DNA from: Giardia intestinalis
Lineage: Eukaryota
Direction: 5' to 3' (one strand)
Assembly: GCA_000002435.2 (NCBI GenBank)
Contig: CM018793.1
Length of the DNA: 64,000 nt
In this document: positions 42,536 through 64,000 of the stretch, in pieces
Numbering within the stretch: position 1 is the stretch's first letter
Layout of the letters: each line of letters opens with the position of its first letter
Translations under genes and position numbers: made by a program
The notes under the pieces: generated by a model
Databases searched by the model: none
Told to the model about the DNA's origin: nothing
What the model saw: only the letters and a program-made list of their open reading frames with translations

Positions 42536-44203
42536 ATGGAGGATGGAGTAGCGAAAATTAAACCGGAGTTTCTGGTTTCTCATGGAACAAGCAATATCGG
42601 TGCGCATTCGTTGACCAAGGAAGGAGGGAGGAACGTCAATTTCGGCACCTCTAGTAACAGCTTGAGACAGCTTTGTAATAGCATCATCCTCAATAAGCAG
42701 TGTAAAAACCCAAAATGTAATGCATACCATGACTTGGATGAATTCTCTGTCTACTATACTCCTCCTCAGACATCCATTTCGTGCCACTTTTTGAAAACGT
42801 ATGGAAAGTGCCCCTTCTCCGTTAATTGCATGTACGCATCTTCTCACTTTCAGGAGTCGCTAGACGATCTATTTGCTAAAAAGTCTGTACCCACAAAGGA
42901 AGAGGTTGTCCCACTTTTAAACGCGTTCCCAGGGGCAACATTGGCAGACCTTCGACGAGGTGAATATAGAAAGTTGGGAGAAAAGCGTTCTTCTGTCATG
43001 CCATCGACTTCATTTACAAGTGCGTTCACCCGCTCAAAGTCGTCATCAGAGCAAAAGCCGCTCATGCTAGCTCCTATGTGCACCGTTGGCACCATTCCGT
43101 TTAGAAGACTTTGCATCCACTACGGCTGCGAAATTACTCTCTGCGAGATGGTATTCGCCAGAGACATTCTTCATGGAGATGCACAGGAGCTTAGAAAAAT
43201 AAAGCGCCATCCAGATGAAAAATGCTTCGGGATTCAGCTAGCAGGGCGAGGGCAGGAACTTATGGAGATAGTCAACTTCATTTCACAGTGCTGTTCGTGC
43301 GACTTCATTGACCTCAACGCTGCTTGCCCACAGGATATCGCGACAAAGAAGTGCTGTGGTGCTGCACTTGCTGCCAATCTAAAGAAGCTAGTCAGTTCTG
43401 TTGATTGCATGGTAAGAGGAGGGGAGCACTATGGTGTCCCTGTATTTCTTAAGATTCGGGCAGGGGATCTGCGCGGCGACTGGACAGGAGACTCTGTGGC
43501 ACAGGCCTTAAGGCTATCTGGTTTATATGGTTTAAGTGTCCATCTGCGTACGGCAAAGCAGCGCTACTCTAAATTAGCAAACTGGGACTACCTGGTATCT
43601 ATGCGGCATGCTTTGGATAATTGTGAAGAAAGTACAGCGCCTGATCTAGAACCACAACTTAAGCACGATATCAGTAGTAGTACCACCAACAGGCCCATTA
43701 TACGTACCCCTCCTTTGCTGGGAGGAAATGGAGACATATTCGATTATACAGATTTGCACCGTGACGACCATTCAACAGTTGACTATTATCTTATTGCACG
43801 AGGAGCACTTGTGAAACCGTGGATTTTTCAAGAGATCAAAGAAGGCCGTCGAATAGACATGTCGTCACAATCGCGACTCGAAATGCTGAAGCTTTTTGCA
43901 TCCTTCTGTTTAGAGTATTACGGATCTGACGCCCCTGGAGTTGAGAAGGCCAGAGCTCAATTCTTAGAGAACTGGAGTTTTATGTGCAGGTATATTCCCG
44001 TCGGTATACTCGATGAGCCACAGAAACTCAACCAACGGCCCCCGATGTTCCGCGGCCGTGATGAGCTAGAGACGCTAATGGCTTCTCAATCAGCCTCTGA
44101 TTGGGTCACCATCTCCGAGATGCTCTTTGGGCCTGTACCAGCGGGATTTTCCTTTGTACCGAAACACAAAAGTCATGGATATGTTTCCGAGTCTGTAAAT
44201 TAA
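42536..44203 (+). CDS. tRNA-dihydrouridine synthase, DUS3-like (CCCH zinc fingers + Dus TIM-barrel)
   Basis: N-terminal CCCH-type fingers (CKNPKCNAYHD; CHFLKTYGKCPFSVNCMYASSH) followed by Dus core LAPMCTVGTIPFRRLCIHYGCEITLCEMVFARDIL (cf. LAPM..VG.LPFR.LC...GADIT.SEM), catalytic-region C/K residues; ATG with aagatttaattaaaaATG initiator. Confidence 0.8.
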   Translation: MEDGVAKIKPEFLVSHGTSNIGAHSLTKEGGRNVNFGTSSNSLRQLCNSIILNKQCKNPKCNAYHDLDEFSVYYTPPQTSISCHFLKTYGKCPFSVNCMYASSHFQESLDDLFAKKSVPTKEEVVPLLNAFPGATLADLRRGEYRKLGEKRSSVMPSTSFTSAFTRSKSSSEQKPLMLAPMCTVGTIPFRRLCIHYGCEITLCEMVFARDILHGDAQELRKIKRHPDEKCFGIQLAGRGQELMEIVNFISQCCSCDFIDLNAACPQDIATKKCCGAALAANLKKLVSSVDCMVRGGEHYGVPVFLKIRAGDLRGDWTGDSVAQALRLSGLYGLSVHLRTAKQRYSKLANWDYLVSMRHALDNCEESTAPDLEPQLKHDISSSTTNRPIIRTPPLLGGNGDIFDYTDLHRDDHSTVDYYLIARGALVKPWIFQEIKEGRRIDMSSQSRLEMLKLFASFCLEYYGSDAPGVEKARAQFLENWSFMCRYIPVGILDEPQKLNQRPPMFRGRDELETLMASQSASDWVTISEMLFGPVPAGFSFVPKHKSHGYVSESVN

Positions 44204-44518: not shown

Positions 44519-46684
44519 ATGTTCGAAAAAATTCTCTTCACAAACTGCATATTGCAATTGGCCTGGATAATACAAACAGTAGCTGGGGCATGCACACCGG
44601 GAGAAACTGGTCCAACTAAGTGTAAAACCTGTGACGCTATCATAGGCACAGACAGCTATTGCAGCGAGTGTGACCAGGCGGGCGAAGGACCCATCAATGG
44701 AGTATGTACAAGCGAGCTAAGCGGCAATACTTGCGCTAATAAGATATGCACCCAGTGCGTAAAGAATTACTTCTTATATAAAGGAGGATGCTATAAATTT
44801 GCCGAATCACCGGGAAACATCATATGTGAAGACGCGATAGATGCAGCTGGCGGAACGGACGGAGTGTGTACCACGTGCAAGGCTGCTAACGGCTTCTTCA
44901 AGCATCCCGCCCCTGCAGAAACAAAACAGTCCTGCATTGCTTGTAATGAAACGGCCGGAGTCGTGGACAGTGACACCACGTACAAGGGTACATCCAACTG
45001 CCTGAAGTGTGACCCGCCCGCTGCTGCAATTGGAGCTAGAGCAGATAAAATGGCAGTGTGCACTCTTTGCGATCAGACTAAGTATCTCAAGGAAAGCGCA
45101 TGTGTCGAGAAAGCAGGGTGCGGCGCCAACATGTTTGGTAAGCCAAGTGTACAGGACGGGAATAAATGCATTGCGTGCGGGGATTCAAATGCTGGTATAG
45201 AGGGTTGCGCTGAGTGCACTGCGCCTGATGAACCAACTATTAAACCCACCTGTACAAAATGCACCGGTAACAACTACCTGAAAACCACAAGCGAAGGCAC
45301 GTCGTGCGTACAAAAGGAACAATGTAATGGGGCCTACTTTCCTAATGATAGTGTAGACGGTAAGAAACAGTGCGTTTCGTGTGGCGATGCAACTAATAAA
45401 GGCATAACCGACTGCACTGCATGCAATCTACTCAGCAGTCCGCTAGAAACAGTTCTTATTAAATGCTCTGCCTGCAGAAGTGGGAAGAAGCCTAATGAAG
45501 ATGGATCTGCGTGCGTCGATGCCCCAGGGCCCTCTCCAGAAGAATGCTCGATCGAAGGATGTCAGATATGTTCGGATGACAAAAAGACGTGTGATAAGTG
45601 CCAATCAAACAACTATCTCACTCCAACAAAACTCTGCATATCTGATTGCAAGAAGCTCGGAAACTATTATTTAGCTACCGAGCAAACAACTGGGAGCTGC
45701 AGGGAGTGCGCTATGGTTAATTGCAAAGAGTGTACTGAGAACGGTAAGTGTGGAATATGCAACGATGGCTTTTACCTCCTGAATGAGGAATGTAAGCCAT
45801 GTAATGATAGTTGCAAGACGTGCGAGGGTGGAGTGGAATCTGATAAGTGCACTAGCTGTAAGTCTGGAAGTGCTCTTATTTATGCAGGCAACGGAAATAC
45901 AGGCACATGTAGTCTTGGTTGCATACCCAAATCAAGTGCAGATCCTGGGTCTTGCAAGACATGTGATTTAGCTATTGATGGGACAAAGTATTGCTCAGTG
46001 TGTAATGTGGATAAAGAATACCCTCAAAACGGAGCTTGTGCTGGCATCAAGGCGCGTGCATCCTCATGCCAAGATGGAAATGTTAATAATGGTGTATGTA
46101 GTAAGTGCGAGACAGGGTTCTTCCTTATGAATGGGGGATGTTATGAAATAACCAAGTATCCCGGGAAAACAGTTTGCAGTAAGACAGCGGCTGATGGTAC
46201 ATGTGAGACACCCGCGACCGGCTTTAGTCTAAGTAGCAATACACTCAAAGCTTGCTTTGAAGGTTGTGCTAAGTGTGCTACTGGTGACGATTGTTCTGAA
46301 TGCATCAGCGGCTATGTATCAGGTAGTACCCCTAATAGTTGCGAAAAGTGTAGTACTGGTTGTGCTACATGCTACCCTACTGCCACGACTTGCACATCTT
46401 GTCTTGCTGGATACTATCAATCTGGACCTAAGTGCATTGCCTGTGATAAAGATGATTCTACTATCAAAGGTATTAGTAATTGCTTGAACTGCGCCCCTCC
46501 ATCGTCTGGTAGTGGCTCTGTCCTCTGTTATCTCATGAAAGGTGCCGACAACAACGGCGGGAGCACGAACAAGAGCGGCCTCAGCACAGGCGCCATAGCG
46601 GGGATCTCTGTCGCTGTCATCGTTGTTGTGGGGGGCCTCGTCGGCTTCCTCTGCTGGTGGTTCGTGTGCCGGGGCAAGGCGTGA
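44519..46684 (+). CDS. vsp: variant-specific surface protein (VSP)
   Basis: Signal peptide MFEKILFTNCILQLAWIIQTVAGA; ~40 CXXC motifs; GGCY motifs (YKGGCYKF, MNGGCYEI); C-terminal TM + invariant tail GAIAGISVAVIVVVGGLVGFLCWWFVCRGKA*; AGTAAAC poly(A) signal 8 nt after stop. Confidence 0.92.
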   Translation: MFEKILFTNCILQLAWIIQTVAGACTPGETGPTKCKTCDAIIGTDSYCSECDQAGEGPINGVCTSELSGNTCANKICTQCVKNYFLYKGGCYKFAESPGNIICEDAIDAAGGTDGVCTTCKAANGFFKHPAPAETKQSCIACNETAGVVDSDTTYKGTSNCLKCDPPAAAIGARADKMAVCTLCDQTKYLKESACVEKAGCGANMFGKPSVQDGNKCIACGDSNAGIEGCAECTAPDEPTIKPTCTKCTGNNYLKTTSEGTSCVQKEQCNGAYFPNDSVDGKKQCVSCGDATNKGITDCTACNLLSSPLETVLIKCSACRSGKKPNEDGSACVDAPGPSPEECSIEGCQICSDDKKTCDKCQSNNYLTPTKLCISDCKKLGNYYLATEQTTGSCRECAMVNCKECTENGKCGICNDGFYLLNEECKPCNDSCKTCEGGVESDKCTSCKSGSALIYAGNGNTGTCSLGCIPKSSADPGSCKTCDLAIDGTKYCSVCNVDKEYPQNGACAGIKARASSCQDGNVNNGVCSKCETGFFLMNGGCYEITKYPGKTVCSKTAADGTCETPATGFSLSSNTLKACFEGCAKCATGDDCSECISGYVSGSTPNSCEKCSTGCATCYPTATTCTSCLAGYYQSGPKCIACDKDDSTIKGISNCLNCAPPSSGSGSVLCYLMKGADNNGGSTNKSGLSTGAIAGISVAVIVVVGGLVGFLCWWFVCRGKA

Positions 46685-46913: not shown

Positions 46914-47534
46914 CTAGACCAGCGAGGCGAGGAGCTTCGTGATCCCCGGGCGCGCGCGGTAGCCATCAAATAGCTCGCGCAGCGGCGGAAACTGGTCCAC
47001 GAGCTCCGGACACTCTGCGTCCGCATAATACAGGACCTCCAGGACCGCGTAGTCCGAGTCGAGCGGCTCGAACGCCAGGCTCCGAAGGTTCAGCACGTCC
47101 CGGGTCAGGACGGTCAGCCCCGGAAGGATCCTGTTCTGTCGGTAGGCCGCGATGCACTCCGAGCGCGTCATCTCTGCCCCAGCGGCAAGGGCCTCTGCCA
47201 CGGCTTTGGGCTCCTTCCAGGCGGCGGCAAGGAGATCCTCACAGAAGAGCACCAGGGCCCGCGCAGCAGCCTGCACCTGCAATGACGTGCTGTACCGCCC
47301 CAGGCTCGCCCCCAGGTACTCCAGGATGACCATGCCCCCGGCCACCCGCGCCGCGCTGTCTTCCCACACGGGGAGCGTGCACGATGGTGCACCCACCTTC
47401 GCCGCGGCCACCTGCTCGGCGCTCGCCAAGGGCGCCCACTCGTACCGTATCTCCAGGTCTGCGAGCAGGAGCCGGCACTTCAACGCGGTGCCCCGGGCGT
47501 CGTAGTACGTGAGTCTCGGCGGAACTACGTCCAT
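46914..47534 (-). CDS. glutathione S-transferase-fold protein (cytosolic GST sigma/mu-like architecture), extremely GC3-rich
   Basis: MDVVPPRLTYYDARGTALKCRLLLADLEIRYEW...PVWEDSAARVAGGMVILEYLG parallels GST N-domain (KLTYFNxRGRAE.IR...I.YE...P.LEVDG..L.QS.AI.RYL); C-terminal alpha-helical domain; GC3 >80%; ATG at 47534 preceded by agaagtaaaATG. Confidence 0.5.
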   Translation of the reverse strand: MDVVPPRLTYYDARGTALKCRLLLADLEIRYEWAPLASAEQVAAAKVGAPSCTLPVWEDSAARVAGGMVILEYLGASLGRYSTSLQVQAAARALVLFCEDLLAAAWKEPKAVAEALAAGAEMTRSECIAAYRQNRILPGLTVLTRDVLNLRSLAFEPLDSDYAVLEVLYYADAECPELVDQFPPLRELFDGYRARPGITKLLASLV

Positions 47535-50500
47535 TTTACTTCTCTGGTGGGCTCGTATCAACTGTGCCAAGGTGCGAGGCAACCCCTGGCACGCGGGCCA
47601 CCTCTCCCGGGGGGAGATCCTTGGGTTTCAGTTTACTATCTGAGCGCCAGCTTCATGTAGCTGCTATACGTTGCTAACTGCTAGTACCTGCATAGATAGT
47701 GGTGGGGTTGGGGTGGACACTAGGCTGGCGCGATTTATGGAGGTCGTTTGCCTCCTGGGTCGTTTGAACCTCGAGGGTCCGGAATCTTCCAGTTGGACCC
47801 TCTAAATCATATCACGAACCATCAGACGGAGAGACCGACCCACAGCTGGTCAAAAGGGTCGGCAGTGATCGCAGCCACTGTGTCACTCGAGGACCTGTTG
47901 GGGCCCGGGACTCTGCAGAAGCTCCTCACTAGTTCGGTCTTGAAGTCCACGCTCTTGTGTGCCAAGATCCACGTCTTGTTATGCGTGCCGTGCTTTCCAG
48001 TATAATCGTGCTTATACTTGTCGCCCTCTCTAATGCAGTTTCTAATGCTACCATGACGGGACTTCTCGCTATTTTGTGCTTCATGTTTGTCAACACGGCC
48101 TAGGTGCCCTGCTGTCTGTTCTGCAGCCGCTTCATCTCCTGCTAGAAGGAAGCGAGAGCCCTTGGGTATCCGGTAAGACTTCTGAGTAAACGAGGTAATG
48201 CTTCGATGAGTGTACGTTAGTCGCATCGGCACAGAGCGCGTACTAACCAGACGAAGTCACATGTCTGCTAACTTCTATATAATATTCTAAAGCTATCCGG
48301 TCTCTGGGTGGCACCGCCAGGTGTGTAGTGGGGCCCGTGGCCATTAAGACCCAGAAGGGCCTCTTCTCCTACTTGGCTCCGGAGTCAGTCCCAGTAGAGC
48401 ATTGTTATGAGGCTGGTGTGCAGAGAGACACCGGATAGTTTGTACCGGTACACACCCCTTGTCCCCAGACGGCACTCACCAGGAGTAGGCATTCGTAGAA
48501 CCGCAGCATCGTGGGCTTGTGCACCGCTCGCTGCCCATGCACGTGTAGCTGCAGGCACACAAGCCAGTCGAGAGGCGCTCACTTGCCGGAGCTCCCTAAT
48601 CACTGTTCAGAACACCGAACCGACGCCCCTGCCAGCGCGCCGCTCTTTGTAAGATACCCCAGAGGAACTCCAGTCGTCGCTCAACAGCGTGCATACCCGA
48701 GGCCTCTGTCTAGGGAACACTGCGCCCGCCTCTGCATGTCTTGAAGTGCAGAAAAGAAGGTCTACCGATAGAGCCCTACACCATGTCCAGACATCCTATG
48801 TTTTCAGAATCTTCGCGCAAGGATAAGAGGTAGGATGGGCAGAACTTGGCTGGCCTCGCGTCATGCAGATAGCGATGCTATGCGTACCACGTGATTGCAT
48901 GTCACCGCACAAAGACAAGAGCCTGTATCAGCAGCCGACGGCATTTTACCAGTAGACCGAGGGACATTCCCGCACTGTACTCATTCTCCTGTGTAACTTT
49001 CAAGCATGTTCGGTCGTGCTGGACGCTGCCTTTAGTCATATCTTGCTGAATAGCCAACGCAGTTGGCAGTGACCCCAAATATAGTGCGCCTTGCCTAATT
49101 CAGACTCCGGGATAGGCGTGTGGAAGACAAGCAGACGCATAGTATGGAGCACAGAGAGCCGTAGAGACAGTTCTAAGCGCATCATAGAGAAGCAGAGTGG
49201 GCTGTGGCCTCATGTGGTTAGAGGTATATGATCGTATAGTCTTCTGTTCAGGACACATATCTTGGGAGCCACTGCGTTGAGTCCTCTAGACCATCACTTG
49301 GAGGGCGAACCGTCGTGCAATGCAGGGCTGCATGCCAAAAGACACATGTCTGTCAGGAGAAGGTCGAAGGACGGATCCACAGGCATTGCATGACTTGCTG
49401 GCATTCTTCTGTACAGAGCGTAATGCCTCGTGACAGGGAAGTCGTAGTTTTGTCACCAACCCCAATAGGGCTAAGGCATGATCAACGCAGAACTATGCAT
49501 TCCTGCTGTGGTGTCCACAGAAGTGCTTGTCGAAGAGGATGTTCGCGCTCTCTGAGGGTACACACGAGGAGGGGCTGTGTAATGCGAAGAGCCGGGCACA
49601 GACCTTAAAGGGCTCAGGCTCGTGGTCATAAAAAGTCGCTCCTGCCCGTCTCCGCGGGTACTGCAGTCCTCGATGGTGGATCATCGCATCTTCTCCTTAA
49701 CCGGCACATTGGCAGCCTGGTCTCTGGCGCAGGCACGCAGAGCATCGGGCCAGAAGCGCCGACTCGTTACCTCCTTTGCTCAGCCAAGTCCCGTGTTGGC
49801 CACAGAACACGCGTGTCTGCCCCCAGTGCGTAGCCGCTGAATCCTCAACAGAGGGACGTGTTCAGAAGTCTACGCTAACGCAGCCCACTGCAAGCAAAGT
49901 TCATCTGTCTCTCAGAGAAGAGGCGGCTGGGCCGTGTGTTGCGCATCAAGAGGCCTTTGTGAAGGGCGCCCGCACGTCTCGTCACACATGTGCGTCCGAG
50001 TGACAAGTAGCAGCCGGCGATACGGCCGCCCTCGGCTTCGCAGACACAGCGGGTGTGCTTACTGGTGTTCAAAGCAGTATGCCGTTGATCGTGGCATGCC
50101 TTTTCTCCAGGAGGGCTGGACGCCACTCGAATTGTGACTGTGTGCCATAGACGGGTGCTCTCCTTGTTACTCTGTAACACTCGTGCGCATCGGGACCGGC
50201 GATTCGCATCTGTGATCCAGACAGGAGCAGCGTCTTGTACTTCCGAGTAAGATGCAGCCGGCCCGCGAGCCTACGTGCCGATCTATAGTCTATAACAAGC
50301 AAGCGGCAACCACTTGGCGTGCTACTCACGTGGACATTGCAGACTCTGCATCTGAATCGAGAGGCTTGACAGCGTACCGATTCCACGCTTGGCCGTCATA
50401 GGAGCCGCTTCCTTCTGCTCAGTAGTAAGCAGTCCGGCTTTACCGGTAGGAATGATCGATATAGCTGAGTGGCCCGAATAGACCCTAGTGACACCACGGC

Positions 50501-51526
50501 TTTCTGTTTATATTAAACGCCTTCGCTGTACTGGGGTCTCAGTGAGAAGACGAGCACAGATCCAGGCATGCAAGCCTTTAGAGATGCGTACTCCACGCAA
50601 TTCCGGTGTGCTCGCCTGACGAGTCCTACTGCTCTAGCCGGCATACCGTTAGATCCTTCTGTACAGATTGAGCGAGCAGATATTAGCATACGGGTCACGT
50701 TAAGTACCTATGTTCAAGGCAGCTGCTGTTGAACGGGCACACCCAGAGCCACTGTCACGTAAGATGCCAGCAAGATTCGCGGCCGCAGATCACACTGTAA
50801 TCTGGCGACTGATTTGGTCATGTCGCTTCTTTATCGGCTGGAAACTCGACTGGAAGCGACAGAGAGCACGTCGGGAGAACTCGATGGGAGAGGACTGGCA
50901 GGGCTTCCTGCGCCACGGGGGGAGCCACCGCAGGAGGACGCGCAGGCACGCACGCCAGGCCACAGTAGACACGCGGACGCCCCTGTAGACTGGGCCGGCA
51001 GCAGGCGTCCGCAGAATCCGCGCCAGAGCCAGCTGCTCAAAAAACTGGGCAGCCTCTGGTCGTGTGCAGGCCTTGCAGAGCGCTGCGGCTCCCGACACTC
51101 GGCGACCCCTCTCAGAGCGGAAGACCCCGCGGGCCGCAGGCAGCAGCTCGTCGTCGGCGATGTCCCGAACGAGGGGGACGGCCCCAGCCTGCCTGCCTCC
51201 GCAGAGCTCTGGGTGTCTGCAGACAAACCGGGGCTGCGCAGGGCGCGGCTCTCCCTGGCGGCCGAGGGCGGGGATCCCCGGCAATACCAAAAAACTCCGA
51301 TCAATACATCAACCCCGGCGCCGCCGTGTGCAAAGCAGTCTGTTCTGTGTGGCGACCTAAGCCAACTCGTACTGCGGCGATGGCCCGGATGAGGGCGCCC
51401 TGCTCGCCCGACGGACCGGGGCAGGCAGGCAACAAACACCCGCTAAAACTTTTGCGCAAGGCCTGTACATATTTAATTTCACATTATTCGTTGGTCTGTT
51501 TTTAGTTTTATCGCCGCTTCTATTGG

Positions 51527-52117
51527 ATGGGCTCTGGGGCAATGACGGCGGAGACGCGCGCCTCCGTTCTGCTCGAGCTCGCGAAGCAGGTCGTCGCTGC
51601 CCGGCGGCTGGGGGAGACGGCCGAGAGCCTCGCGCGGCGGCCGCTGCTCCTCCACCGGCACGTGCTCCGGACGGCCATCGACTGGAAGAAGATCGCCCGC
51701 GCCCTGTCCGAGGACCGGAGCAGGATCTACCACTGGTACCGCGAGACGCACTCGCGGAGCATCCTCAACGTGAAGATGACCGGCGAGGACCGCAGGGCCA
51801 TCAAGGCGATGATCATCGCCGGGGTCAGGGACCGGAGCATCCTGGGCCCGGACTTCTACCGCAGGGTCCACGAGCGCTTCGGGGCGAAGTATCCGCGCCA
51901 GGAGCTGCGGATGACGTACAACAACGCGCTCCGCACCCAGGACGTCCGCGCCGCCCTGGAGGAGCATGGGGTTCTTCCTGGGCCCGGCACCCTCTCGCTC
52001 CAGACGGGCCAGGATCTTCTCGGGCCGCCCACTTCCTTCGCATGCGTGCCATGCTTCCCCCCTGCGGGCTACGGGGGCGTGCCTGGGTGCGCTGATACAT
52101 ACCCCAGTAAGGGCTGA
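51527..52117 (+). CDS. candidate GC-rich gene encoding 196-aa protein with two Myb/SANT-like helix-turn-helix units
   Basis: Only ORF in the GC-rich desert with protein-like composition (IDWKKIARALSEDRSRIYHWYRETH; RRAIKAMIIAGVRDRSILGPDFYRRVHERFG); ATG preceded by a sharply AT-rich initiator patch (tacatatttaatttcacattattcgttggtctgtttttagttttatcgccgcttctattggATG) embedded in ~68% GC DNA. Confidence 0.3.
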   Translation: MGSGAMTAETRASVLLELAKQVVAARRLGETAESLARRPLLLHRHVLRTAIDWKKIARALSEDRSRIYHWYRETHSRSILNVKMTGEDRRAIKAMIIAGVRDRSILGPDFYRRVHERFGAKYPRQELRMTYNNALRTQDVRAALEEHGVLPGPGTLSLQTGQDLLGPPTSFACVPCFPPAGYGGVPGCADTYPSKG

Positions 52118-53407
52118 AGACTGGAGAGCCCGGCTTGCCTGGTGGTCGTCGAGGGGCATCGACGAGTGGTCGGTAGAAACGGCTAATAGTTGAAGTCCTG
52201 GTCAGTGGCGAGACAGTCATTCCTAGAGCGTGTAGCATGCTCGGCCACTTCATAACGCAGGGCCCACCAGACGCAAGCTGTGACGGCCTGGATGTCGCGC
52301 AATCCGTGGCCTGTGCATCGTTGCAGGGGCCATACACAGCAGGTGGAGGCAGGGTTTCCTGTGTGCTCAGACGACTCGACCATCGCAGTTCTGGGTCGAC
52401 GATCCACTAGATATTCCTGTCTAACAACGGGCGGCCGAACGCCCTCTGGGCTGTGAGCTAACACTAACGTGCAGTTGGTCGGCCACCAGATCCATCTTGG
52501 TTAGCCCTCTGCCTACATGCGCCAACACGCCGAGGAGCTACAGGGCAGTCGTTTGCTGTCTTGACAGGTATACTATTGCCTCTATATCTGCACCCTGGAT
52601 GCGGCCACCATAGCACAGTTGCATCTCTGATCATCCTGTGCACACCTTCTGGCACGAGCAGGTGCGCCGGAAGGGATGCACTGCCCACCGCCGAGAAATG
52701 GATGAACTCCCTTACCCAGGAGCCGGCTGACCACTAGCCGTGCCCAGCAAACCCCAATAAGCAGGCCTGCTGAGCCAACCCATCCAAGAAGCTGTGTATC
52801 CGGAAGAGCTTCGCGTCGAATGGCTCCTTGATTAAAGAAGCTGGCATCCAGCGCGACATGACGACTGCTCGCCTGGTGCTGTGCTACCTGCTGGGCGGAA
52901 ACACAGACGCCCTAAGCTCCGTGTGAGCTTGTGCTCAAAGCGTCCTTCACCGGCACGGGATTCCAGGAACTAGGCGTAGATAGGAAGAGCATTCCCCGCT
53001 AGTGCCACGAAGTACCGGTACGCTACCTGGATACACCGATGGCAGCGAAGAGTACGAGAAGGTCCCAGGGCCTCATCGAGCGGGTCTGCTCCTAGCAGGC
53101 CCAAGTGGACGCTCTCTCCAGCAGTGTACAAGAAGCCTGGGAGGGAGTGCTCAGGCTGGAGCTGAGGCGTTGCTGGTACAGGCTGTCCTTACTGAGTGCA
53201 TCCCTCAGCGTCCAATAAGTGGAAAAGTGACCGGAGCTAGGTGTGCCTGCTTCTTCTCTGCCGCCTGCATGTTGTTGCATCTCTAGCTCTTCCTCATTTG
53301 TCGAGCGACTGCTCCTTCTGGCCTCTTGCTGGTCCTCGTTCGTCGTGTAGTCTCTTTTGGAGCTGCTCCCTGGAGGTCGGGCTGACCAGCAACATGGAGG
53401 AGCCTCA

Positions 53408-56400
53408 TTCTTAGCTTCACACTCCACAACTGGCCCAGCGACATGTTGACCATTTTACAAGCAGTTCTGGGTCGCCCAGTCTGGGGCCGGCTGCTGTGCA
53501 TTCTCTGCTTGACTGCCAGGGTCCGCGTCTGGCCCAGACACTAGATGGACAGGAGGCACGGACAAACGCCATTTGCTTGTTGCTTTCATGATCCACGAAG
53601 CTGCTGTCTTTATGTGAGTCTCGACCCAGGTCGGTCTCCGTTGTAGGTGCAACAGTCTTGCGCATGCAATCTGGAGGATCTACGTTAGCGGGTCGAGCCG
53701 AGCAATCCTTGTTAGCGCCTGCCATCCGACGTCTCTGTTGTTGAACTGGCCTGTAGAAGTCCGCTATAGGCCCTCAGGCTCTTTGTCTGTGAGGTTCTGT
53801 GAGGTCCTCTATACCGGTCAGGCCTGTCCGCGTACTCTGTTGATGGGCGAGCTGGTGCATGCAGTCACAGCCCCTGCGCCACCTTCCATTCGGCACTCGG
53901 CGTGTCCACCTGCTTCCGGCCTGCCCTCGCAGAGCACGCTAAGCGCCCACCTATAGCGCATGTCGGTGGAGACTCCTCGGGAGCAATTTGCGGGGGTCTC
54001 GATGAGGTGGCCGACGCCCAGTGAACGACCCCAAGCCACCCTTTAGTGTCTGCGCTGTCGCTCCACGAGAGTGCGTAGTGGGATGCGGCCCGGAGTCCTC
54101 ATGTGCGGGGGCTGACAAGGACTGACAGCCACAGTCAACGGCAGAAAGTTCGGCACCCCGTGTTCCCACGACGTCTCCGATCGCAGTACTGGCGGGGCCT
54201 GACGGCGCTTCTCTTCTTAATTCGGAACGAGTTAAGGAGTTTCCGCCGTAGGATGGCCGAACTGGCGGCCGGCAGGGCTGTGCGATGTGTTAGAGATTGT
54301 TAGAGATTCATACTGTATATTGTGCAGTGGCTAACGTGTATGGGTGTCCCACCGAAGACCCGGCGAAGGATGGCACCGGAGGTGAGACAGGATGACTCCT
54401 GGTGGAGGGGACCACGGTGCTGGCTTGCCTGCAGATGCCGTGGCCAAAATCTCAGCCCGTCCAGGAGTTTAACGGAGGTCATGCGGCCGGACACCGAGGC
54501 CTACCGGAGAGCCGCATCGCCCCTGCACGAGCCAGCAAGCACTGCCTTCGACCCGACCACAGTTGAGAGCGCCCATGTCCGTGGATGCCGTCGGTCAGGT
54601 CCCTGAAGACCACCCTGCTCACAGCCCCAGGGATCCCTCTGCAGACTCTGATTTCTATATCCCTGGGGTAGATGTTTGCGGATAGCGGCACAGGGCTCAG
54701 CAAAACCGCCAGAAGATCCACAGCACACTGTCATTAACTATAAACGTCTTGCGGTATTCATTCCACAATTGAGCCGGTCGTACTGACACAGGAACTGGAG
54801 TCAGGCACTTCTAGGGTGCAACTACAGGACTGTGGAGGAGCTTGCCTTCACACAAAGAAGATCACGTGGACCAGATGTGCCCGGACTGAGAAGCGCCCGC
54901 TTTACCGAGTAATGGTCGCTAATCTATGCACACAGATCATGTTTGGCGGCAAGCTCCCCTGTAGCTCATGCATCACTGTGAATCACTGCCTAGAGGCTTG
55001 TGTTGGAGATGCCGCAAGACACTAATGGCTGACAGGTGTGACTAGCCGTTCTTCCAGTGGTCGTCTCTGGATGCACCGAGTACCTAAGGCGATAGATCAG
55101 CGCTGCAGGCCTTGACTGTCACGGGCCTTGTGCATAGCTGATCAAATGCCCAACACACTCTGCCCGAGGGTGCCCAAACCCCACGGTGCTGTAGTCGGGC
55201 TGCTAAGGTGCGAGAGGTGGGGCACAGAGGCGCCTATCAGAGCCAAGGATCTATGTGTCACCTGCCTCTGGGTGGAGCAACTACGCCATAGTAGGGGGTG
55301 TTTGTTGCCATACAGAAGTGGGTACGATGAGATACGAAGGCACAGTCCTGCCGCAGAATCCGACGGGTGCTCGGAAACGGGTAACCCGGTAACCTCGTAG
55401 AATAGCAACGTCGAAGCTATAGAGTAAGCAGATGTAATAGGAGATGCGTTTACTACCTAAGTCACGCCTTGCCCCGGCACACGAACCACCAGCAGAGGAA
55501 GCCGACGAGGCCCCCCACAACAACGATGACAGCGACAGAGATCCCCGCTATGGCGCCTGTGCTGAGGCCGCTCTTGTTCGTGCTCCCGCCGTTGTTGTCA
55601 CCAGTACTATCACCCATCTCGAGGCACATGAACGCACTGGTGGATGACACCGTGCACTGTCTGCACCCAGCGAGCCCCTCAGAGCACTTCTTGCACGGTC
55701 CACTATCGCTACTCTCCTTATAATATCCACGAGCACATACTTTGCATGTGGCAGCCGCGGTTTCGCAGGTGTAGCAGCTTTCATGACATTTCGTGCAAGC
55801 TTTGACGTTACTGAATGCTATGTATCCATCCATACATTCTGTACATTCATTTGCAGTATTACACGTCTTACAGCCTTCAGGGCATATTACAAGGTTGTTT
55901 TCATTATTTAAGTTAAACCCTGGCATAGGTCTATCACAAGTCCCACCAGTTGTCGCCACTGTTGCACATACACTGTGCGCAGGGTACTTCTCATCTTCGT
56001 AGCACCCTCCGTTCATCCGAAGGAGCCCATTAGCACACGAATTGCAGACACCGGTTCCTTGAGAGGTGCATGTCGCAGCCCGCCCACTTGGTTTCGGTGC
56101 ACAGACACCGTTCTGGGGATACTCATTGTCCTGGCTACATGCAGAGCAGTACCTTGTGCCTTTAACAATTAGATCACATGCTTTACAGTTCCCAGTGGCT
56201 TTATCTGTATTGACAACACATTCAGGAGCGCATTTACCCTTCTGCCCATTTGCATAGTCAAGGATGGTTCCAGGTTTGCACTCAGTACAATCATTAGCAG
56301 TGTTTCCCTTACAATTCTTGCAACTACCGTCACACTTCTGGCATATCCCAGCATCGTCAGCATAGAATCCATCTTCGCAGAAACCGCATTTGCCGTTCGG

Positions 56401-57945
56401 ATCACACACAACGCAATTCTTGACCTCGCACTTCTTACAGATCCCTTTGCCGCCCTCTGTGCTGCTGTAGTAGCCTAGAATATATTCGCAATATTTTATG
56501 CACATCCCTGTCGGAGTGAGATAGTTCTTGTCCTTGCACTCCTCACATGTCTTCTTGTCTGCAGAACATTTCTGGCAGTTCTCGACGGGGCAGTCAGAGG
56601 GCGGAGGTTCTGGGGCATCGACACATGTAGATCCCTCGTCATTGGGTGTCTTTCCGCCGTTACACGTAGTGCACTTGATAGCAGACTCTCCAGCTAATCC
56701 GCGAGCTTCCTTGAGAGTACATGTCTTACAGTCAATTATGCCACCGGCGTCGGTGTCTCCACACGGGACGCATTTTTTGATACCCTTAGCTGTGACAGGG
56801 AAGTGGTCTGTCTTACACTGCGTCTTTTCAACGCAACTAGAAGGCGTTACAGCTAATAAATAGTATTCGCCCTCACACGTAGTGCATGTGGCAGAGCCGG
56901 GGCCTTCAGGAGGAGTACACACTTTGCAGTTCGGAACACCTCTGAAACCATCAATCGTATCTGCCTCATTGCAGGCAATGCAAGATTGGTGGGTGTTATC
57001 GCTAGCACCCATATTTTTGAAGAACCCGTTAGCGTCATTGCATGTTTCACAGAGTCCTGCACTACTACTCGCACTTTTGCAAACGGTTTGTCCAGGAGGT
57101 GCTGCTTGTACATAGCATCCACCTTTGTGGAGGAAGTATCCAGCCTTAGTACACTTTCCACATGTGGTTGAATGCTCATCGAGAGCTCCATCAACTTTTT
57201 CACATCCGGCAGTTGTGATAAGCCCATCACTTTTATCCTTACATTCCCCATTAATGGGCACCTCTCCAGGTTTAGCACAGTCAGTGCAAACTCTATCTCC
57301 ACCTATGCTAATGCATTTACCCTGTTTACACTGTCCTGTTTGCGGGTCACTGCTAGCCTCTGTGCATGTTTTTGCTGCCCGTGCTACTTGCAGAATCAAA
57401 ATTCCAAAGAGGATTTTCTCGAACATTGCCAGCAGTCCGTAGAGCATCCAGTAGAGAGAGCCTGCACACCTAATATCAGTGTGCTGTGTCGCTAGACATC
57501 GCTTATGGGGGCGGTCCAGAGGTCTTACATGAGCTGCCCCAACTTTCTGATCAGTTTGGAGACGATGGCTGGTTCTAGACAGCAAACAGGGACTCCTCTT
57601 TATTAGCATATCTAAAACCTGGCACCTTCCCCGGCCGCTCACCCTGGGATTTAGCTCACTTGCCCACTTGCGTCGTCCACCAATGGCGCCTCTCCTTGGT
57701 CTTCCTTCGTGGTGGGTGAAGCTCCGGTCGCTGTCTTTTTTAGATGCTCCCGTCTGTCAGGGGCTGCCATCGGGCTCTCCACTGGCCGCCCCTCGGTGTC
57801 CGTCTGGCTGTGGCCCGGGCAGCGCTCTACAGTCGCGGTCACTTGGGTCTCAGCGGGCCAGCTGGTGGGGAGGCTGGGGCATGGGGCGGTGAGGCTGGAG
57901 GGTGGCGGTGTCGTCTGTGCCCCTGGTCCGGTGGGCCATTGGGGT
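53408..57945. repeat. left arm of large inverted repeat (>=4.5 kb; outer end truncated by mirror of window edge) containing VSP gene plus flanks
   Basis: Mirror-image identical ORF translations about axis 58704 (53417..53725(-) = 63683..63991(+); 55462..57642(-) = 59766..61946(+)); arms begin to diverge near 57900-57945 (few SNPs: G/R, V/A, P/R codon changes). Confidence 0.9.
55462..57426 (-). CDS. vsp: variant-specific surface protein (VSP), inverted duplicate of 59982..61946
   Basis: Identical 726-aa extended ORF to the arm-2 copy; signal MFEKILFGILILQVARA (alt. upstream ATG at 57447), CXXC repeats, GGCY, C-terminal ...GFLCWWFVCRGKA*; AGTAAAC signal on minus strand at 55448-55454. Confidence 0.85.
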   Translation of the reverse strand: MFEKILFGILILQVARAAKTCTEASSDPQTGQCKQGKCISIGGDRVCTDCAKPGEVPINGECKDKSDGLITTAGCEKVDGALDEHSTTCGKCTKAGYFLHKGGCYVQAAPPGQTVCKSASSSAGLCETCNDANGFFKNMGASDNTHQSCIACNEADTIDGFRGVPNCKVCTPPEGPGSATCTTCEGEYYLLAVTPSSCVEKTQCKTDHFPVTAKGIKKCVPCGDTDAGGIIDCKTCTLKEARGLAGESAIKCTTCNGGKTPNDEGSTCVDAPEPPPSDCPVENCQKCSADKKTCEECKDKNYLTPTGMCIKYCEYILGYYSSTEGGKGICKKCEVKNCVVCDPNGKCGFCEDGFYADDAGICQKCDGSCKNCKGNTANDCTECKPGTILDYANGQKGKCAPECVVNTDKATGNCKACDLIVKGTRYCSACSQDNEYPQNGVCAPKPSGRAATCTSQGTGVCNSCANGLLRMNGGCYEDEKYPAHSVCATVATTGGTCDRPMPGFNLNNENNLVICPEGCKTCNTANECTECMDGYIAFSNVKACTKCHESCYTCETAAATCKVCARGYYKESSDSGPCKKCSEGLAGCRQCTVSSTSAFMCLEMGDSTGDNNGGSTNKSGLSTGAIAGISVAVIVVVGGLVGFLCWWFVCRGKA

Positions 57946-59462: not shown

Positions 59463-62400
59463 ACCCCAGTCCACCGAGAGGTCAGGGGCACAGACGACAC
59501 CGCCACCCTCCAGCCTCACCGCCCCATGCCCCAGCCTCCCCACCAGCTGGCCCGCTGAGACCCAAGTGACCGCGACTGTAGAGCGCTGCCCGGGCCACAG
59601 CCAGACGGACACCGAGGGGCGGCCAGCGGAGAGCCCGATGGCAGCCCCTGACAGACGGGAGCATCTAAAAAAGACAGCGACCCGAGCTTCACCCACCACG
59701 AAGGAAGACCAAGGAGAGGCGCCATTGGTGGACGACGCAAGTGGGCAAGTGAGCTAAATCCCAGGGTGAGCGGCCGGGGAAGGTGCCAGGTTTTAGATAT
59801 GCTAATAAAGAGGAGTCCCTGTTTGCTGTCTAGAACCAGCCATCGTCTCCAAACTGATCAGAAAGTTGGGGCAGCTCATGTAAGACCTCTGGACCGCCCC
59901 CATAAGCGATGTCTAGCGACACAGCACACTGATATTAGGTGTGCAGGCTCTCTCTACTGGATGCTCTACGGACTGCTGGCAATGTTCGAGAAAATCCTCT
60001 TTGGAATTTTGATTCTGCAAGTAGCACGGGCAGCAAAAACATGCACAGAGGCTAGCAGTGACCCGCAAACAGGACAGTGTAAACAGGGTAAATGCATTAG
60101 CATAGGTGGAGATAGAGTTTGCACTGACTGTGCTAAACCTGGAGAGGTGCCCATTAATGGGGAATGTAAGGATAAAAGTGATGGGCTTATCACAACTGCC
60201 GGATGTGAAAAAGTTGATGGAGCTCTCGATGAGCATTCAACCACATGTGGAAAGTGTACTAAGGCTGGATACTTCCTCCACAAAGGTGGATGCTATGTAC
60301 AAGCAGCACCTCCTGGACAAACCGTTTGCAAAAGTGCGAGTAGTAGTGCAGGACTCTGTGAAACATGCAATGACGCTAACGGGTTCTTCAAAAATATGGG
60401 TGCTAGCGATAACACCCACCAATCTTGCATTGCCTGCAATGAGGCAGATACGATTGATGGTTTCAGAGGTGTTCCGAACTGCAAAGTGTGTACTCCTCCT
60501 GAAGGCCCCGGCTCTGCCACATGCACTACGTGTGAGGGCGAATACTATTTATTAGCTGTAACGCCTTCTAGTTGCGTTGAAAAGACGCAGTGTAAGACAG
60601 ACCACTTCCCTGTCACAGCTAAGGGTATCAAAAAATGCGTCCCGTGTGGAGACACCGACGCCGGTGGCATAATTGACTGTAAGACATGTACTCTCAAGGA
60701 AGCTCGCGGATTAGCTGGAGAGTCTGCTATCAAGTGCACTACGTGTAACGGCGGAAAGACACCCAATGACGAGGGATCTACATGTGTCGATGCCCCAGAA
60801 CCTCCGCCCTCTGACTGCCCCGTCGAGAACTGCCAGAAATGTTCTGCAGACAAGAAGACATGTGAGGAGTGCAAGGACAAGAACTATCTCACTCCGACAG
60901 GGATGTGCATAAAATATTGCGAATATATTCTAGGCTACTACAGCAGCACAGAGGGCGGCAAAGGGATCTGTAAGAAGTGCGAGGTCAAGAATTGCGTTGT
61001 GTGTGATCCGAACGGCAAATGCGGTTTCTGCGAAGATGGATTCTATGCTGACGATGCTGGGATATGCCAGAAGTGTGACGGTAGTTGCAAGAATTGTAAG
61101 GGAAACACTGCTAATGATTGTACTGAGTGCAAACCTGGAACCATCCTTGACTATGCAAATGGGCAGAAGGGTAAATGCGCTCCTGAATGTGTTGTCAATA
61201 CAGATAAAGCCACTGGGAACTGTAAAGCATGTGATCTAATTGTTAAAGGCACAAGGTACTGCTCTGCATGTAGCCAGGACAATGAGTATCCCCAGAACGG
61301 TGTCTGTGCACCGAAACCAAGTGGGCGGGCTGCGACATGCACCTCTCAAGGAACCGGTGTCTGCAATTCGTGTGCTAATGGGCTCCTTCGGATGAACGGA
61401 GGGTGCTACGAAGATGAGAAGTACCCTGCGCACAGTGTATGTGCAACAGTGGCGACAACTGGTGGGACTTGTGATAGACCTATGCCAGGGTTTAACTTAA
61501 ATAATGAAAACAACCTTGTAATATGCCCTGAAGGCTGTAAGACGTGTAATACTGCAAATGAATGTACAGAATGTATGGATGGATACATAGCATTCAGTAA
61601 CGTCAAAGCTTGCACGAAATGTCATGAAAGCTGCTACACCTGCGAAACCGCGGCTGCCACATGCAAAGTATGTGCTCGTGGATATTATAAGGAGAGTAGC
61701 GATAGTGGACCGTGCAAGAAGTGCTCTGAGGGGCTCGCTGGGTGCAGACAGTGCACGGTGTCATCCACCAGTGCGTTCATGTGCCTCGAGATGGGTGATA
61801 GTACTGGTGACAACAACGGCGGGAGCACGAACAAGAGCGGCCTCAGCACAGGCGCCATAGCGGGGATCTCTGTCGCTGTCATCGTTGTTGTGGGGGGCCT
61901 CGTCGGCTTCCTCTGCTGGTGGTTCGTGTGCCGGGGCAAGGCGTGACTTAGGTAGTAAACGCATCTCCTATTACATCTGCTTACTCTATAGCTTCGACGT
62001 TGCTATTCTACGAGGTTACCGGGTTACCCGTTTCCGAGCACCCGTCGGATTCTGCGGCAGGACTGTGCCTTCGTATCTCATCGTACCCACTTCTGTATGG
62101 CAACAAACACCCCCTACTATGGCGTAGTTGCTCCACCCAGAGGCAGGTGACACATAGATCCTTGGCTCTGATAGGCGCCTCTGTGCCCCACCTCTCGCAC
62201 CTTAGCAGCCCGACTACAGCACCGTGGGGTTTGGGCACCCTCGGGCAGAGTGTGTTGGGCATTTGATCAGCTATGCACAAGGCCCGTGACAGTCAAGGCC
62301 TGCAGCGCTGATCTATCGCCTTAGGTACTCGGTGCATCCAGAGACGACCACTGGAAGAACGGCTAGTCACACCTGTCAGCCATTAGTGTCTTGCGGCATC

Positions 62401-64000
62401 TCCAACACAAGCCTCTAGGCAGTGATTCACAGTGATGCATGAGCTACAGGGGAGCTTGCCGCCAAACATGATCTGTGTGCATAGATTAGCGACCATTACT
62501 CGGTAAAGCGGGCGCTTCTCAGTCCGGGCACATCTGGTCCACGTGATCTTCTTTGTGTGAAGGCAAGCTCCTCCACAGTCCTGTAGTTGCACCCTAGAAG
62601 TGCCTGACTCCAGTTCCTGTGTCAGTACGACCGGCTCAATTGTGGAATGAATACCGCAAGACGTTTATAGTTAATGACAGTGTGCTGTGGATCTTCTGGC
62701 GGTTTTGCTGAGCCCTGTGCCGCTATCCGCAAACATCTACCCCAGGGATATAGAAATCAGAGTCTGCAGAGGGATCCCTGGGGCTGTGAGCAGGGTGGTC
62801 TTCAGGGACCTGACCGACGGCATCCACGGACATGGGCGCTCTCAACTGTGGTCGGGTCGAAGGCAGTGCTTGCTGGCTCGTGCAGGGGCGATGCGGCTCT
62901 CCGGTAGGCCTCGGTGTCCGGCCGCATGACCTCCGTTAAACTCCTGGACGGGCTGAGATTTTGGCCACGGCATCTGCAGGCAAGCCAGCACCGTGGTCCC
63001 CTCCACCAGGAGTCATCCTGTCTCACCTCCGGTGCCATCCTTCGCCGGGTCTTCGGTGGGACACCCATACACGTTAGCCACTGCACAATATACAGTATGA
63101 ATCTCTAACAATCTCTAACACATCGCACAGCCCTGCCGGCCGCCAGTTCGGCCATCCTACGGCGGAAACTCCTTAACTCGTTCCGAATTAAGAAGAGAAG
63201 CGCCGTCAGGCCCCGCCAGTACTGCGATCGGAGACGTCGTGGGAACACGGGGTGCCGAACTTTCTGCCGTTGACTGTGGCTGTCAGTCCTTGTCAGCCCC
63301 CGCACATGAGGACTCCGGGCCGCATCCCACTACGCACTCTCGTGGAGCGACAGCGCAGACACTAAAGGGTGGCTTGGGGTCGTTCACTGGGCGTCGGCCA
63401 CCTCATCGAGACCCCCGCAAATTGCTCCCGAGGAGTCTCCACCGACATGCGCTATAGGTGGGCGCTTAGCGTGCTCTGCGAGGGCAGGCCGGAAGCAGGT
63501 GGACACGCCGAGTGCCGAATGGAAGGTGGCGCAGGGGCTGTGACTGCATGCACCAGCTCGCCCATCAACAGAGTACGCGGACAGGCCTGACCGGTATAGA
63601 GGACCTCACAGAACCTCACAGACAAAGAGCCTGAGGGCCTATAGCGGACTTCTACAGGCCAGTTCAACAACAGAGACGTCGGATGGCAGGCGCTAACAAG
63701 GATTGCTCGGCTCGACCCGCTAACGTAGATCCTCCAGATTGCATGCGCAAGACTGTTGCACCTACAACGGAGACCGACCTGGGTCGAGACTCACATAAAG
63801 ACAGCAGCTTCGTGGATCATGAAAGCAACAAGCAAATGGCGTTTGTCCGTGCCTCCTGTCCATCTAGTGTCTGGGCCAGACGCGGACCCTGGCAGTCAAG
63901 CAGAGAATGCACAGCAGCCGGCCCCAGACTGGGCGACCCAGAACTGCTTGTAAAATGGTCAACATGTCGCTGGGCCAGTTGTGGAGTGTGAAGCTAAGAA
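59463..64000. repeat. right arm of large inverted repeat (runs to window end)
   Basis: Reverse complement of 53408..57945; see left arm. Confidence 0.9.
59982..61946 (+). CDS. vsp: variant-specific surface protein (VSP), head-to-head with its inverted duplicate
   Basis: Start chosen by homology to first VSP (MFEKILF...; alternative ATG at 59961 MLYGLLAMFEKILF; track start 59766 is a non-ATG extension); CXXC/GGCY motifs; CRGKA tail; AGTAAAC at 61954-61960. Confidence 0.85.
   Translation: MFEKILFGILILQVARAAKTCTEASSDPQTGQCKQGKCISIGGDRVCTDCAKPGEVPINGECKDKSDGLITTAGCEKVDGALDEHSTTCGKCTKAGYFLHKGGCYVQAAPPGQTVCKSASSSAGLCETCNDANGFFKNMGASDNTHQSCIACNEADTIDGFRGVPNCKVCTPPEGPGSATCTTCEGEYYLLAVTPSSCVEKTQCKTDHFPVTAKGIKKCVPCGDTDAGGIIDCKTCTLKEARGLAGESAIKCTTCNGGKTPNDEGSTCVDAPEPPPSDCPVENCQKCSADKKTCEECKDKNYLTPTGMCIKYCEYILGYYSSTEGGKGICKKCEVKNCVVCDPNGKCGFCEDGFYADDAGICQKCDGSCKNCKGNTANDCTECKPGTILDYANGQKGKCAPECVVNTDKATGNCKACDLIVKGTRYCSACSQDNEYPQNGVCAPKPSGRAATCTSQGTGVCNSCANGLLRMNGGCYEDEKYPAHSVCATVATTGGTCDRPMPGFNLNNENNLVICPEGCKTCNTANECTECMDGYIAFSNVKACTKCHESCYTCETAAATCKVCARGYYKESSDSGPCKKCSEGLAGCRQCTVSSTSAFMCLEMGDSTGDNNGGSTNKSGLSTGAIAGISVAVIVVVGGLVGFLCWWFVCRGKA

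Follow-up and report, generated by a model that had tools for sequence, protein, structure and literature searches.

A shortened copy of a diplomonad protein family with one predicted Myb/SANT-like helix-turn-helix in a VSP region of Giardia intestinalis

We analysed a 64,000-nucleotide stretch of Giardia intestinalis DNA (contig CM018793.1 of assembly GCA_000002435.2; hereafter the window) and report that the open reading frame (ORF) at 51527-52117 (+) is a genuine conserved protein-coding gene, already known as the hypothetical gene GL50803_113864. Although shortened, the gene copy is intact; it belongs to a recently amplified subfamily with at least nine loci in isolate WB, and the wider family appears, across the sequences searched, to be restricted to diplomonads. 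Its product carries one Myb/SANT-like (homeodomain-like) helix-turn-helix (HTH), which is supported at the level of predicted fold and with which the sequence checks agree weakly. Taken as a whole, the locus is probably best explained as an annotated, shortened family copy that encodes a likely nuclear, sequence-specific DNA-binding factor and that came to lie among VSP genes by duplication. The features that concern the gene are as follows.

51527..52117 (+): coding sequence of GL50803_113864, 196 amino acids (aa) plus stop codon; identified from the ORF, the exact protein in NCBI, homologues and the ratio of nonsynonymous to synonymous substitution rates (dN/dS)
51440..51526 (+): AT-rich island directly 5' of the ATG, candidate core promoter/initiator; GC 0.32-0.38; conserved in assemblages A, E and, in blocks, B
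51527..51631 (+): N-terminal helical extension, residues 1-35 (helices 8-26 and 32-36 in the AlphaFold2 model)
51632..51772 (+): unit 1, residues 36-82, predicted Myb/SANT-like three-helix HTH (helices 39-47, 53-60 and 64-80)
51773..51964 (+): unit 2, residues 83-146, second conserved helical unit (helices 86-102, 110-118, 124-135 and 138-146)
51965..52114 (+): Pro/Gly-rich low-complexity tail with an in-frame deletion, from the protein alignment and the DNA alignment with locus L005
49220..51526 (+): duplicated upstream spacer, a copy of the DNA between a kinesin gene and the ancestral gene copy, from DNA identity to loci L011 and L006

An exact-sequence look-up identified the 196-aa product as the hypothetical protein GL50803_00113864 / GL50803_00d113864 of G. 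intestinalis WB (accessions KAE8304973.1, KAE8304976.1, XP_001709461.1 and XP_037902193.1), encoded on the 4.02-Mb chromosome. The coordinates, the ATG start and the length are those of the original prediction, which was made from the sequence alone; the gene is not novel as had been proposed there, since the exact protein has been annotated from the first WB genome onwards (XP_001709461.1). It is annotated twice, as GL50803_113864 and GL50803_00d113864, both on WB chromosome 5, and the two accessions for an identical protein mean that a second copy exists. The length of the ORF is in itself weak evidence, because the GC-rich DNA of this region (66% GC) holds four further ORFs of 170-226 aa that run across it in different frames or antisense to it. 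Together with a GC content at third codon positions (GC3) of 0.89, vs 0.40-0.46 in the neighbouring VSP, dihydrouridine synthase and 40122 genes, these overlapping ORFs are what a chance ORF within GC-rich DNA would lead one to expect. The frame is nonetheless validated by its homologues, which are 41-59% identical among paralogous genes and have relatives in other genera, and by the substitution pattern (dN/dS below 1); in addition, the predicted fold is of high confidence. The homologues, the family profile and dN/dS refute a chance origin, to which we give virtually no credence, and the expectation of a genuine, folded and conserved coding gene is borne out by homologues, model and substitution pattern alike. 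The high GC3 and the GC-rich non-coding flanks point to regional GC enrichment, possibly through GC-biased gene conversion among the dispersed copies. We also observed that local composition shifts to an extreme degree over 50850-52150, where the 600 nt of non-coding DNA upstream of the ORF reach 70-78% GC.

Purifying selection on the coding sequence is clear, though the constraint is moderate. Over codons 1-150 (Nei-Gojobori), dN/dS was 0.32 between assemblages A and E, 0.44 between A and B and, with dS saturated, 0.37 between the window gene and its paralogue DHA2_153000; the synonymous excess in the three comparisons gave Fisher p = 6e-3, 8e-4 and 8e-7. Orthologues in other assemblages with dN/dS below 1, which the original prediction proposed to look for, therefore exist (0.32-0.44). 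Between the window and assemblage E (isolate P15, locus L006), identity per 100 nt was 91-99% in the N-terminal domain vs 60-80% across the 2.3 kb upstream, the latter being as expected because that DNA is non-coding. Amino-acid changes cluster in residues 1-35, and residues 60-137 are nearly invariant.

A homologue search with the 196-aa protein over 5.8 billion proteins returned 21 Giardia proteins. At 90% identity or more, WB has at least seven further copies, the long copies GL50803_0061066, 0060974 (two copies), 00103981, 00137682, 00114778 and 00112150, which encode 269-277 aa and are spread over four chromosome-scale sequences. Residues 1-148 of the window copy are identical to those of GL50803_0061066. 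Older paralogue lineages within G. intestinalis are represented by GL50803_11149, GL50803_38275 (639 aa), DHA2_153000 / GLP15_4189, GLP15_4271 / GL50581_1998, GLP15_3061 and GL50581_3964, and relatives outside the species were found in G. muris (GMRT_12412), Spironucleus salmonicida (SS50377_22962) and Hexamita inflata. A full HMMER scan with the domain profile, covering 1.84 billion representatives, yielded 76 proteins at E ≤ 1e-3 (36 at E ≤ 1e-10); every named match is a diplomonad "hypothetical protein", and the members come from G. intestinalis assemblages A, B and E, G. muris, Spironucleus and Hexamita. All members share one layout, in which a conserved N-terminal domain of ~150 aa is followed by a variable P/S/Q-rich low-complexity region and a short hydrophobic C-terminal motif. 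The single-copy paralogues are located among housekeeping genes. No further copies were found inside the 64-kb window, and a scan of metagenome contigs for additional loci found none.

The AlphaFold2 model of residues 1-151, built from a 15-sequence alignment, contains nine helices (predicted local distance difference test score 89.7, predicted template modelling score 0.67). Its N-terminal extension is the most variable part of the domain, with 13 of 35 residues differing from assemblage B. Unit 1 is modelled as a bundle of three helices, the second and third of which form a helix-turn-helix; residues W53, Y68, W70 and T74 are near-invariant, and the recognition-type helix R64-L80 carries the invariant RIYHWYRETH. 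In unit 2 the near-invariant motif is YPRQELRMTYNN (family consensus YHR..F....NN..R), which includes the invariant Y-N-N. Conservation peaks in the third helix of each unit (R64-x-R-I-Y-H-W-Y-R-E-T-H in unit 1, Y-P-R-Q-E-L-R-M-T-Y-N-N in unit 2), and these best-conserved positions are where a recognition helix would sit. The fold comparison gave the following scores.

CEF1/Cdc5: 7.8
R2R3-MYB WER: 7.6
SNAPc4: 7.2
c-Myb R1, R2 and R2R3: 6.9-7.1
Tc3 transposase HTH: 6.9
TRF1: 6.7

The original prediction had envisaged two Myb/SANT-like HTH units. One of them, unit 1, is supported at the level of predicted fold; in profile comparisons the second conserved unit resembles neither unit 1 nor Myb repeats. 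The W..IA..L..R..W pattern occurs literally once (W53-K-K-I56-A57-R-A-L60-S-E-D-R64 ... W70), with a W53-to-W70 spacing of 17 residues vs 19 in c-Myb repeats, and the position of the first Myb tryptophan, read from the sequence, is held by aliphatic residues in helix 39-47. The second unit as proposed (residues 83-137) has F/Y, not W, at the pattern positions. When a unit-1 profile was compared by hhalign with nine Myb repeats (approximate sequences), it aligned through the 'W..IA' helix (P 3e-4); unit 2 gave no alignment with the same approximate repeats, which is a lead only, and a comparison of unit 1 with unit 2 as an internal repeat was negative (probability 0.2%). The best PDB sequence match of a 32-sequence family profile was WER (E 0.05), with unit 1 aligned to both WER repeats. 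One of 45 family members matches Myb_DNA-bind_6 (E 8.6e-3, below threshold), and distant members show Pfam HTH_23 matches, also below threshold, on unit 1.

The part in which the window copy departs from its relatives is the tail. An in-frame deletion with its junction at ~51970-51985, within 51965-51990, removes 201-219 nt (67-73 residues) relative to the 258-277-aa copies and appears as a 201-nt gap in the alignment with L005 DNA. Around the deleted stretch the 269-aa copies read 'EEHGVV...LPPGVVPGPG', so that the deletion seems to lie between two GVV-encoding repeats and may be a microhomology-mediated loss. The short form also occurs in independent assemblage-A metagenome assemblies (L007-L009) as a 191-aa call with 98% identity; it therefore persists in populations and is not an oddity of WB. 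The window copy retains the conserved C-terminal motif FACVPCFPP (52037-52063), whose counterparts in the paralogues (FTYIPFIV, IAYVPVLI and MAYISLIL) persist although the low-complexity tails cannot otherwise be aligned. This hydrophobic motif may serve as a linear motif for partner binding.

Just 5' of the ATG, GC content falls to 0.32-0.38 in 60-nt windows at 51440-51529, vs 0.58-0.82 on both sides. The AT-rich island that had been predicted there is thus real, at a length of ~90 nt rather than ~60. The island 'CATATTTAATTTCACATTATTCGTTGGTCTGTTTTTAGTTTTAT' ends 16 nt 5' of the ATG; all assemblage-A copies examined share it with little or no change, E shows 3 changes, and identity between A and E is 87%. 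Assemblage B keeps the blocks GGCCTG, TTTGTTT-TA-TTTT-TA and CGCTTC-AT, and further upstream there is no alignment. Such a phylogenetic footprint is consistent with an AT-rich Giardia core promoter, and the promoter-like look noted in the prediction is upheld, in that a conserved AT-rich proximal region of the Giardia-promoter kind lies within ~60 nt of the start codon. A separate observation is that 51469-51481 and positions 7969-7980 of locus L001, in the island of the distant paralogue DHA2_153000, both hold ACAT(A)TTTAATT, which may be chance in AT-rich DNA. With regard to transcription, GL50803_113864 is among the 149 'unchanged' control genes, counted as expressed, of an encystation RNA-seq study (PMC8700996, Table S3); the expression data of PMC4670223 yielded nothing, and those of PMC4807828 one '137682' match without a usable value.

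The position of the gene among VSP loci had suggested a link to VSP regulation. This is not supported, as segmental duplication of DNA from a non-VSP locus accounts for the position. Window positions 49220-51972 are 96.6% identical over 2.75 kb to L011 5692-8446 (isolate DH), where the gene DHA2_153281 comes after Cpn60_TCP1, Mlf1IP and kinesin; GLP15_5233 in assemblage E (P15, L006) has the same synteny, and there the window block is 73-78% identical. Synteny in both A (DH) and E (P15) identifies the kinesin-adjacent locus as the ancestral one. In the window, 2.3 kb of spacer and the gene together make up a 2.75-kb duplicate that was inserted into a VSP region. Blocks of other extent are shared with L005 (50764-52874, with annexin and RING-finger genes upstream) and with L007 (50637-55281). 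VSPs flank the window copy and turn up again beside others: the 3' end of one is found ~3 kb downstream of the L005 copy, and in L010 another precedes the orthologue from assemblage B. Such recurrence is compatible with co-duplication in recombination-prone regions; it does not amount to evidence for regulation. It is very unlikely, in our judgement, that the amplified 113864-type subfamily is a lineage-specific transcription or chromatin factor that was co-duplicated with VSP loci and helps to choose or silence VSP genes, or, alternatively, that the GC-rich blocks are hot spots of recombination or gene conversion driving turnover of the VSP repertoire. The receiving region is itself duplicated: 53408-55400 is a perfect inverted duplicate of 62008-64000 (100%, 1993 nt) that reaches the window end and encloses two apparently identical 726-aa VSP genes in inverted orientation, with the same Pfam scores (55462-57642 (-) and 59766-61946 (+)). 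Because the duplication runs right up to this end, it probably extends further and includes the second ORF copy, GL50803_00d113864, which would lie just beyond the right end.

The N-terminal domain is strongly basic (isoelectric point (pI) 10.8, net charge +12; 11.5 for unit 1 and 10.9 for unit 2) and the tail is acidic to neutral; this strongly basic character makes DNA binding likely. The combination of basic HTH domain, disordered tail and short C-terminal motif is the layout usually seen in a DNA-binding transcription factor, and hence a nuclear, sequence-specific DNA-binding factor seems the most likely function, which we favour with some confidence. On this proposal, the conserved AT-rich island (51440-51526) would hold the transcription start, DNA would be contacted through the HTH domain, and partners would be recruited by the tail together with the C-terminal motif. 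The 2.75-kb block was duplicated from the ancestral kinesin-adjacent locus into a recombination-prone VSP region, which in turn forms part of the larger inverted duplication.

A number of observations weigh against this interpretation of the family or against activity of the window copy. Myb folds of the SANT and Cdc5 types need not bind DNA, since their ligands can be histone tails or RNA. A Pfam scan of the 196-aa protein, a check that the original prediction had put forward, gave zero families at E ≤ 10, so that Myb membership in the Pfam sense fails, and no Pfam domain reaches threshold in any of the 45 family members scanned. Searches of PDB sequences, run with the protein itself and with two family profiles, gave nothing significant (the best were oskar LOTUS at E 0.13 and the WER match already mentioned), nor did Foldseek with the whole model against the PDB (best E 1.7), although an empty whole-model search is expected if only a sub-domain of ~50 residues matches. 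The window copy is without 67-73 residues of the tail. The canonical AGTRAAY polyadenylation signal is absent after its stop codon, the nearest + strand match downstream of 52117 being at 54020; a variant, AGTAAGG, overlaps the last codons, and the three VSPs of the window, unlike GL50803_113864, have the canonical signal after the stop. The searched literature holds no experimental characterisation of any family member: of nine members looked up by gene ID, none was named in the main text of any paper, and the match to '114778' in PMC3792122 showed no gene ID in the passage concerned. Finally, the sister copy GL50803_137682 has a log2 counts per million (CPM) of ~0-1 at all encystation time points, where typical genes have 5-10 (PMC8700996, Table S1); this is the only expression figure recovered for the subfamily, and it may be depressed by multi-mapping among near-identical copies.

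Some of these points would fit a window copy that is a silent or decaying duplicate, a tail-deleted and barely transcribed passenger of a VSP-region segmental duplication within a family that is otherwise functional. Besides the in-frame loss from the tail, the missing polyadenylation signal and the ~1-2 CPM of 137682, this possibility draws on the redundancy of at least nine near-identical loci and on the location in a block duplicated from a syntenic ancestral locus. Yet the ORF is intact, with a 148-aa N-terminal part identical to GL50803_0061066, the promoter island is intact and the C-terminal motif kept, the 98%-identical short form is present in independent assemblage-A metagenome assemblies, and the gene is counted as expressed, and unchanged, in PMC8700996 Table S3. 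We therefore regard decay of the window copy as possible, if doubtful. The main functional rival concerns the whole family: the Myb/SANT-like fold could be used otherwise, for histone tails and chromatin as in SANT-like proteins or for RNA and spliceosomal partners as in Cdc5/CEF1. The missing first Myb tryptophan, the W-W spacing of 17 rather than 19 and a unit 2 that is not Myb-like would all suit such a use. But SANT domains are usually acidic on the surface that matches the DNA-binding face, whereas here both units are highly basic (pI 11.5 and 10.9); the most conserved residues fall in the recognition-type helix; and a DNA-binding domain with a disordered tail is typical of transcription factors. 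A use of the fold away from DNA thus seems unlikely.

Dispersed, near-identical copies could also be explained if the HTH were the remnant of a DNA transposon of Tc1/mariner- or paired-like type, with which the weak Pfam HTH_23 matches in distant members and the multi-copy spread over several chromosomes would agree. However, no member has a catalytic domain, and the absence of terminal inverted repeats around the unit argues for segmental duplication, not transposition. The duplicated blocks, moreover, differ in extent (2.1, 2.75 and 4.6 kb), synteny of the ancestral copy is kept between assemblages A and E, and the other paralogues are single-copy, sit in housekeeping contexts and are conserved to Spironucleus and Hexamita. 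A transposon origin is extremely improbable on these grounds, and a shortened, segmentally duplicated member of a putative DNA-binding family remains our preferred explanation.

The other features of the surrounding DNA are listed here.

42536-44203: dihydrouridine synthase gene (KAE8304969.1)
44519-46684: VSP (KAE8304970.1)
54145-54264 (-): complete 5S rRNA gene (Rfam RF00001, 88 bits)

The accessions of the dihydrouridine synthase gene and the VSP place the window on WB chromosome 5. The 5S rRNA gene lies 2 kb downstream of the ORF and 1.2 kb from a VSP 3' end, so the region is not the empty "desert" that it had been called; a mirror copy is expected near 63144-63263 (+). The same gene is present in metagenome locus L007 (3492-3611) and absent from L005, L006, L008 and L010. 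At the left edge of the supposed desert, after the VSP, a 222-aa ORF at 46914-47582 (-) matches Pfam GST_N_2 weakly, with an E of 6.5e-6 and a score that narrowly exceeds the gathering score.

Very few transcription factors have been recognised in Giardia, and many genes of the organism are labelled "hypothetical". At the level of this locus our results are mostly corrective: the gene was already annotated, one Myb-like unit is supported and the VSP position comes from segmental duplication. The useful result lies at the level of the family, which is a diplomonad-specific, unmodelled family of probable HTH DNA-binding proteins. If this interpretation is true, a diplomonad-wide family with at least six paralogue lineages per Giardia genome carries a cryptic Myb-like HTH missed by Pfam models, and it adds a set of candidate DNA-binding regulators.

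Compared with known Myb/SANT HTHs (WER 6kks; c-Myb R1-R3 1h89, 1mbe and 1mbg; TRF1 1w0t; SNAPc4 7xur), unit 1 is alike in its 'W..IA..L' second helix, its aromatic-rich basic third helix and its basic surface charge, but GL50803_113864 is without a Pfam Myb/SANT match and without the first tryptophan, and its W-W spacing is 17, not 19. Whereas tandem Myb proteins repeat the unit, it has a single Myb-like unit flanked by an N-terminal helical extension and a different helical unit. The atypical Myb protein Cdc5/CEF1 (6jui, 5mqf_L, 3jb9_W) is a universal spliceosome component with recognisable Myb repeats; the present family is confined to diplomonads, comprises many paralogues and is unrelated to Cdc5 at the sequence level. 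From bipartite HTHs of the paired/Tc3 type (1u78, 1tc3; HTH_23) it is set apart by the lack of a transposase or paired-box signature and of any significant profile match, and by a unit 2 that is not specifically HTH-like. The closest comparison within the organism is Giardia Myb2, by literature description a canonical, recognisable Myb that is single-copy and encystation-induced, whereas GL50803_113864 is listed as unchanged in encystation and is undetected by Myb profiles. Both, however, are Giardia proteins with a Myb-type HTH, predicted in our case, and Myb2, an encystation transcription factor that binds CWACAG (PMC9547401, PMC8700996), provides a precedent for Myb-fold factors acting on short Giardia promoters.

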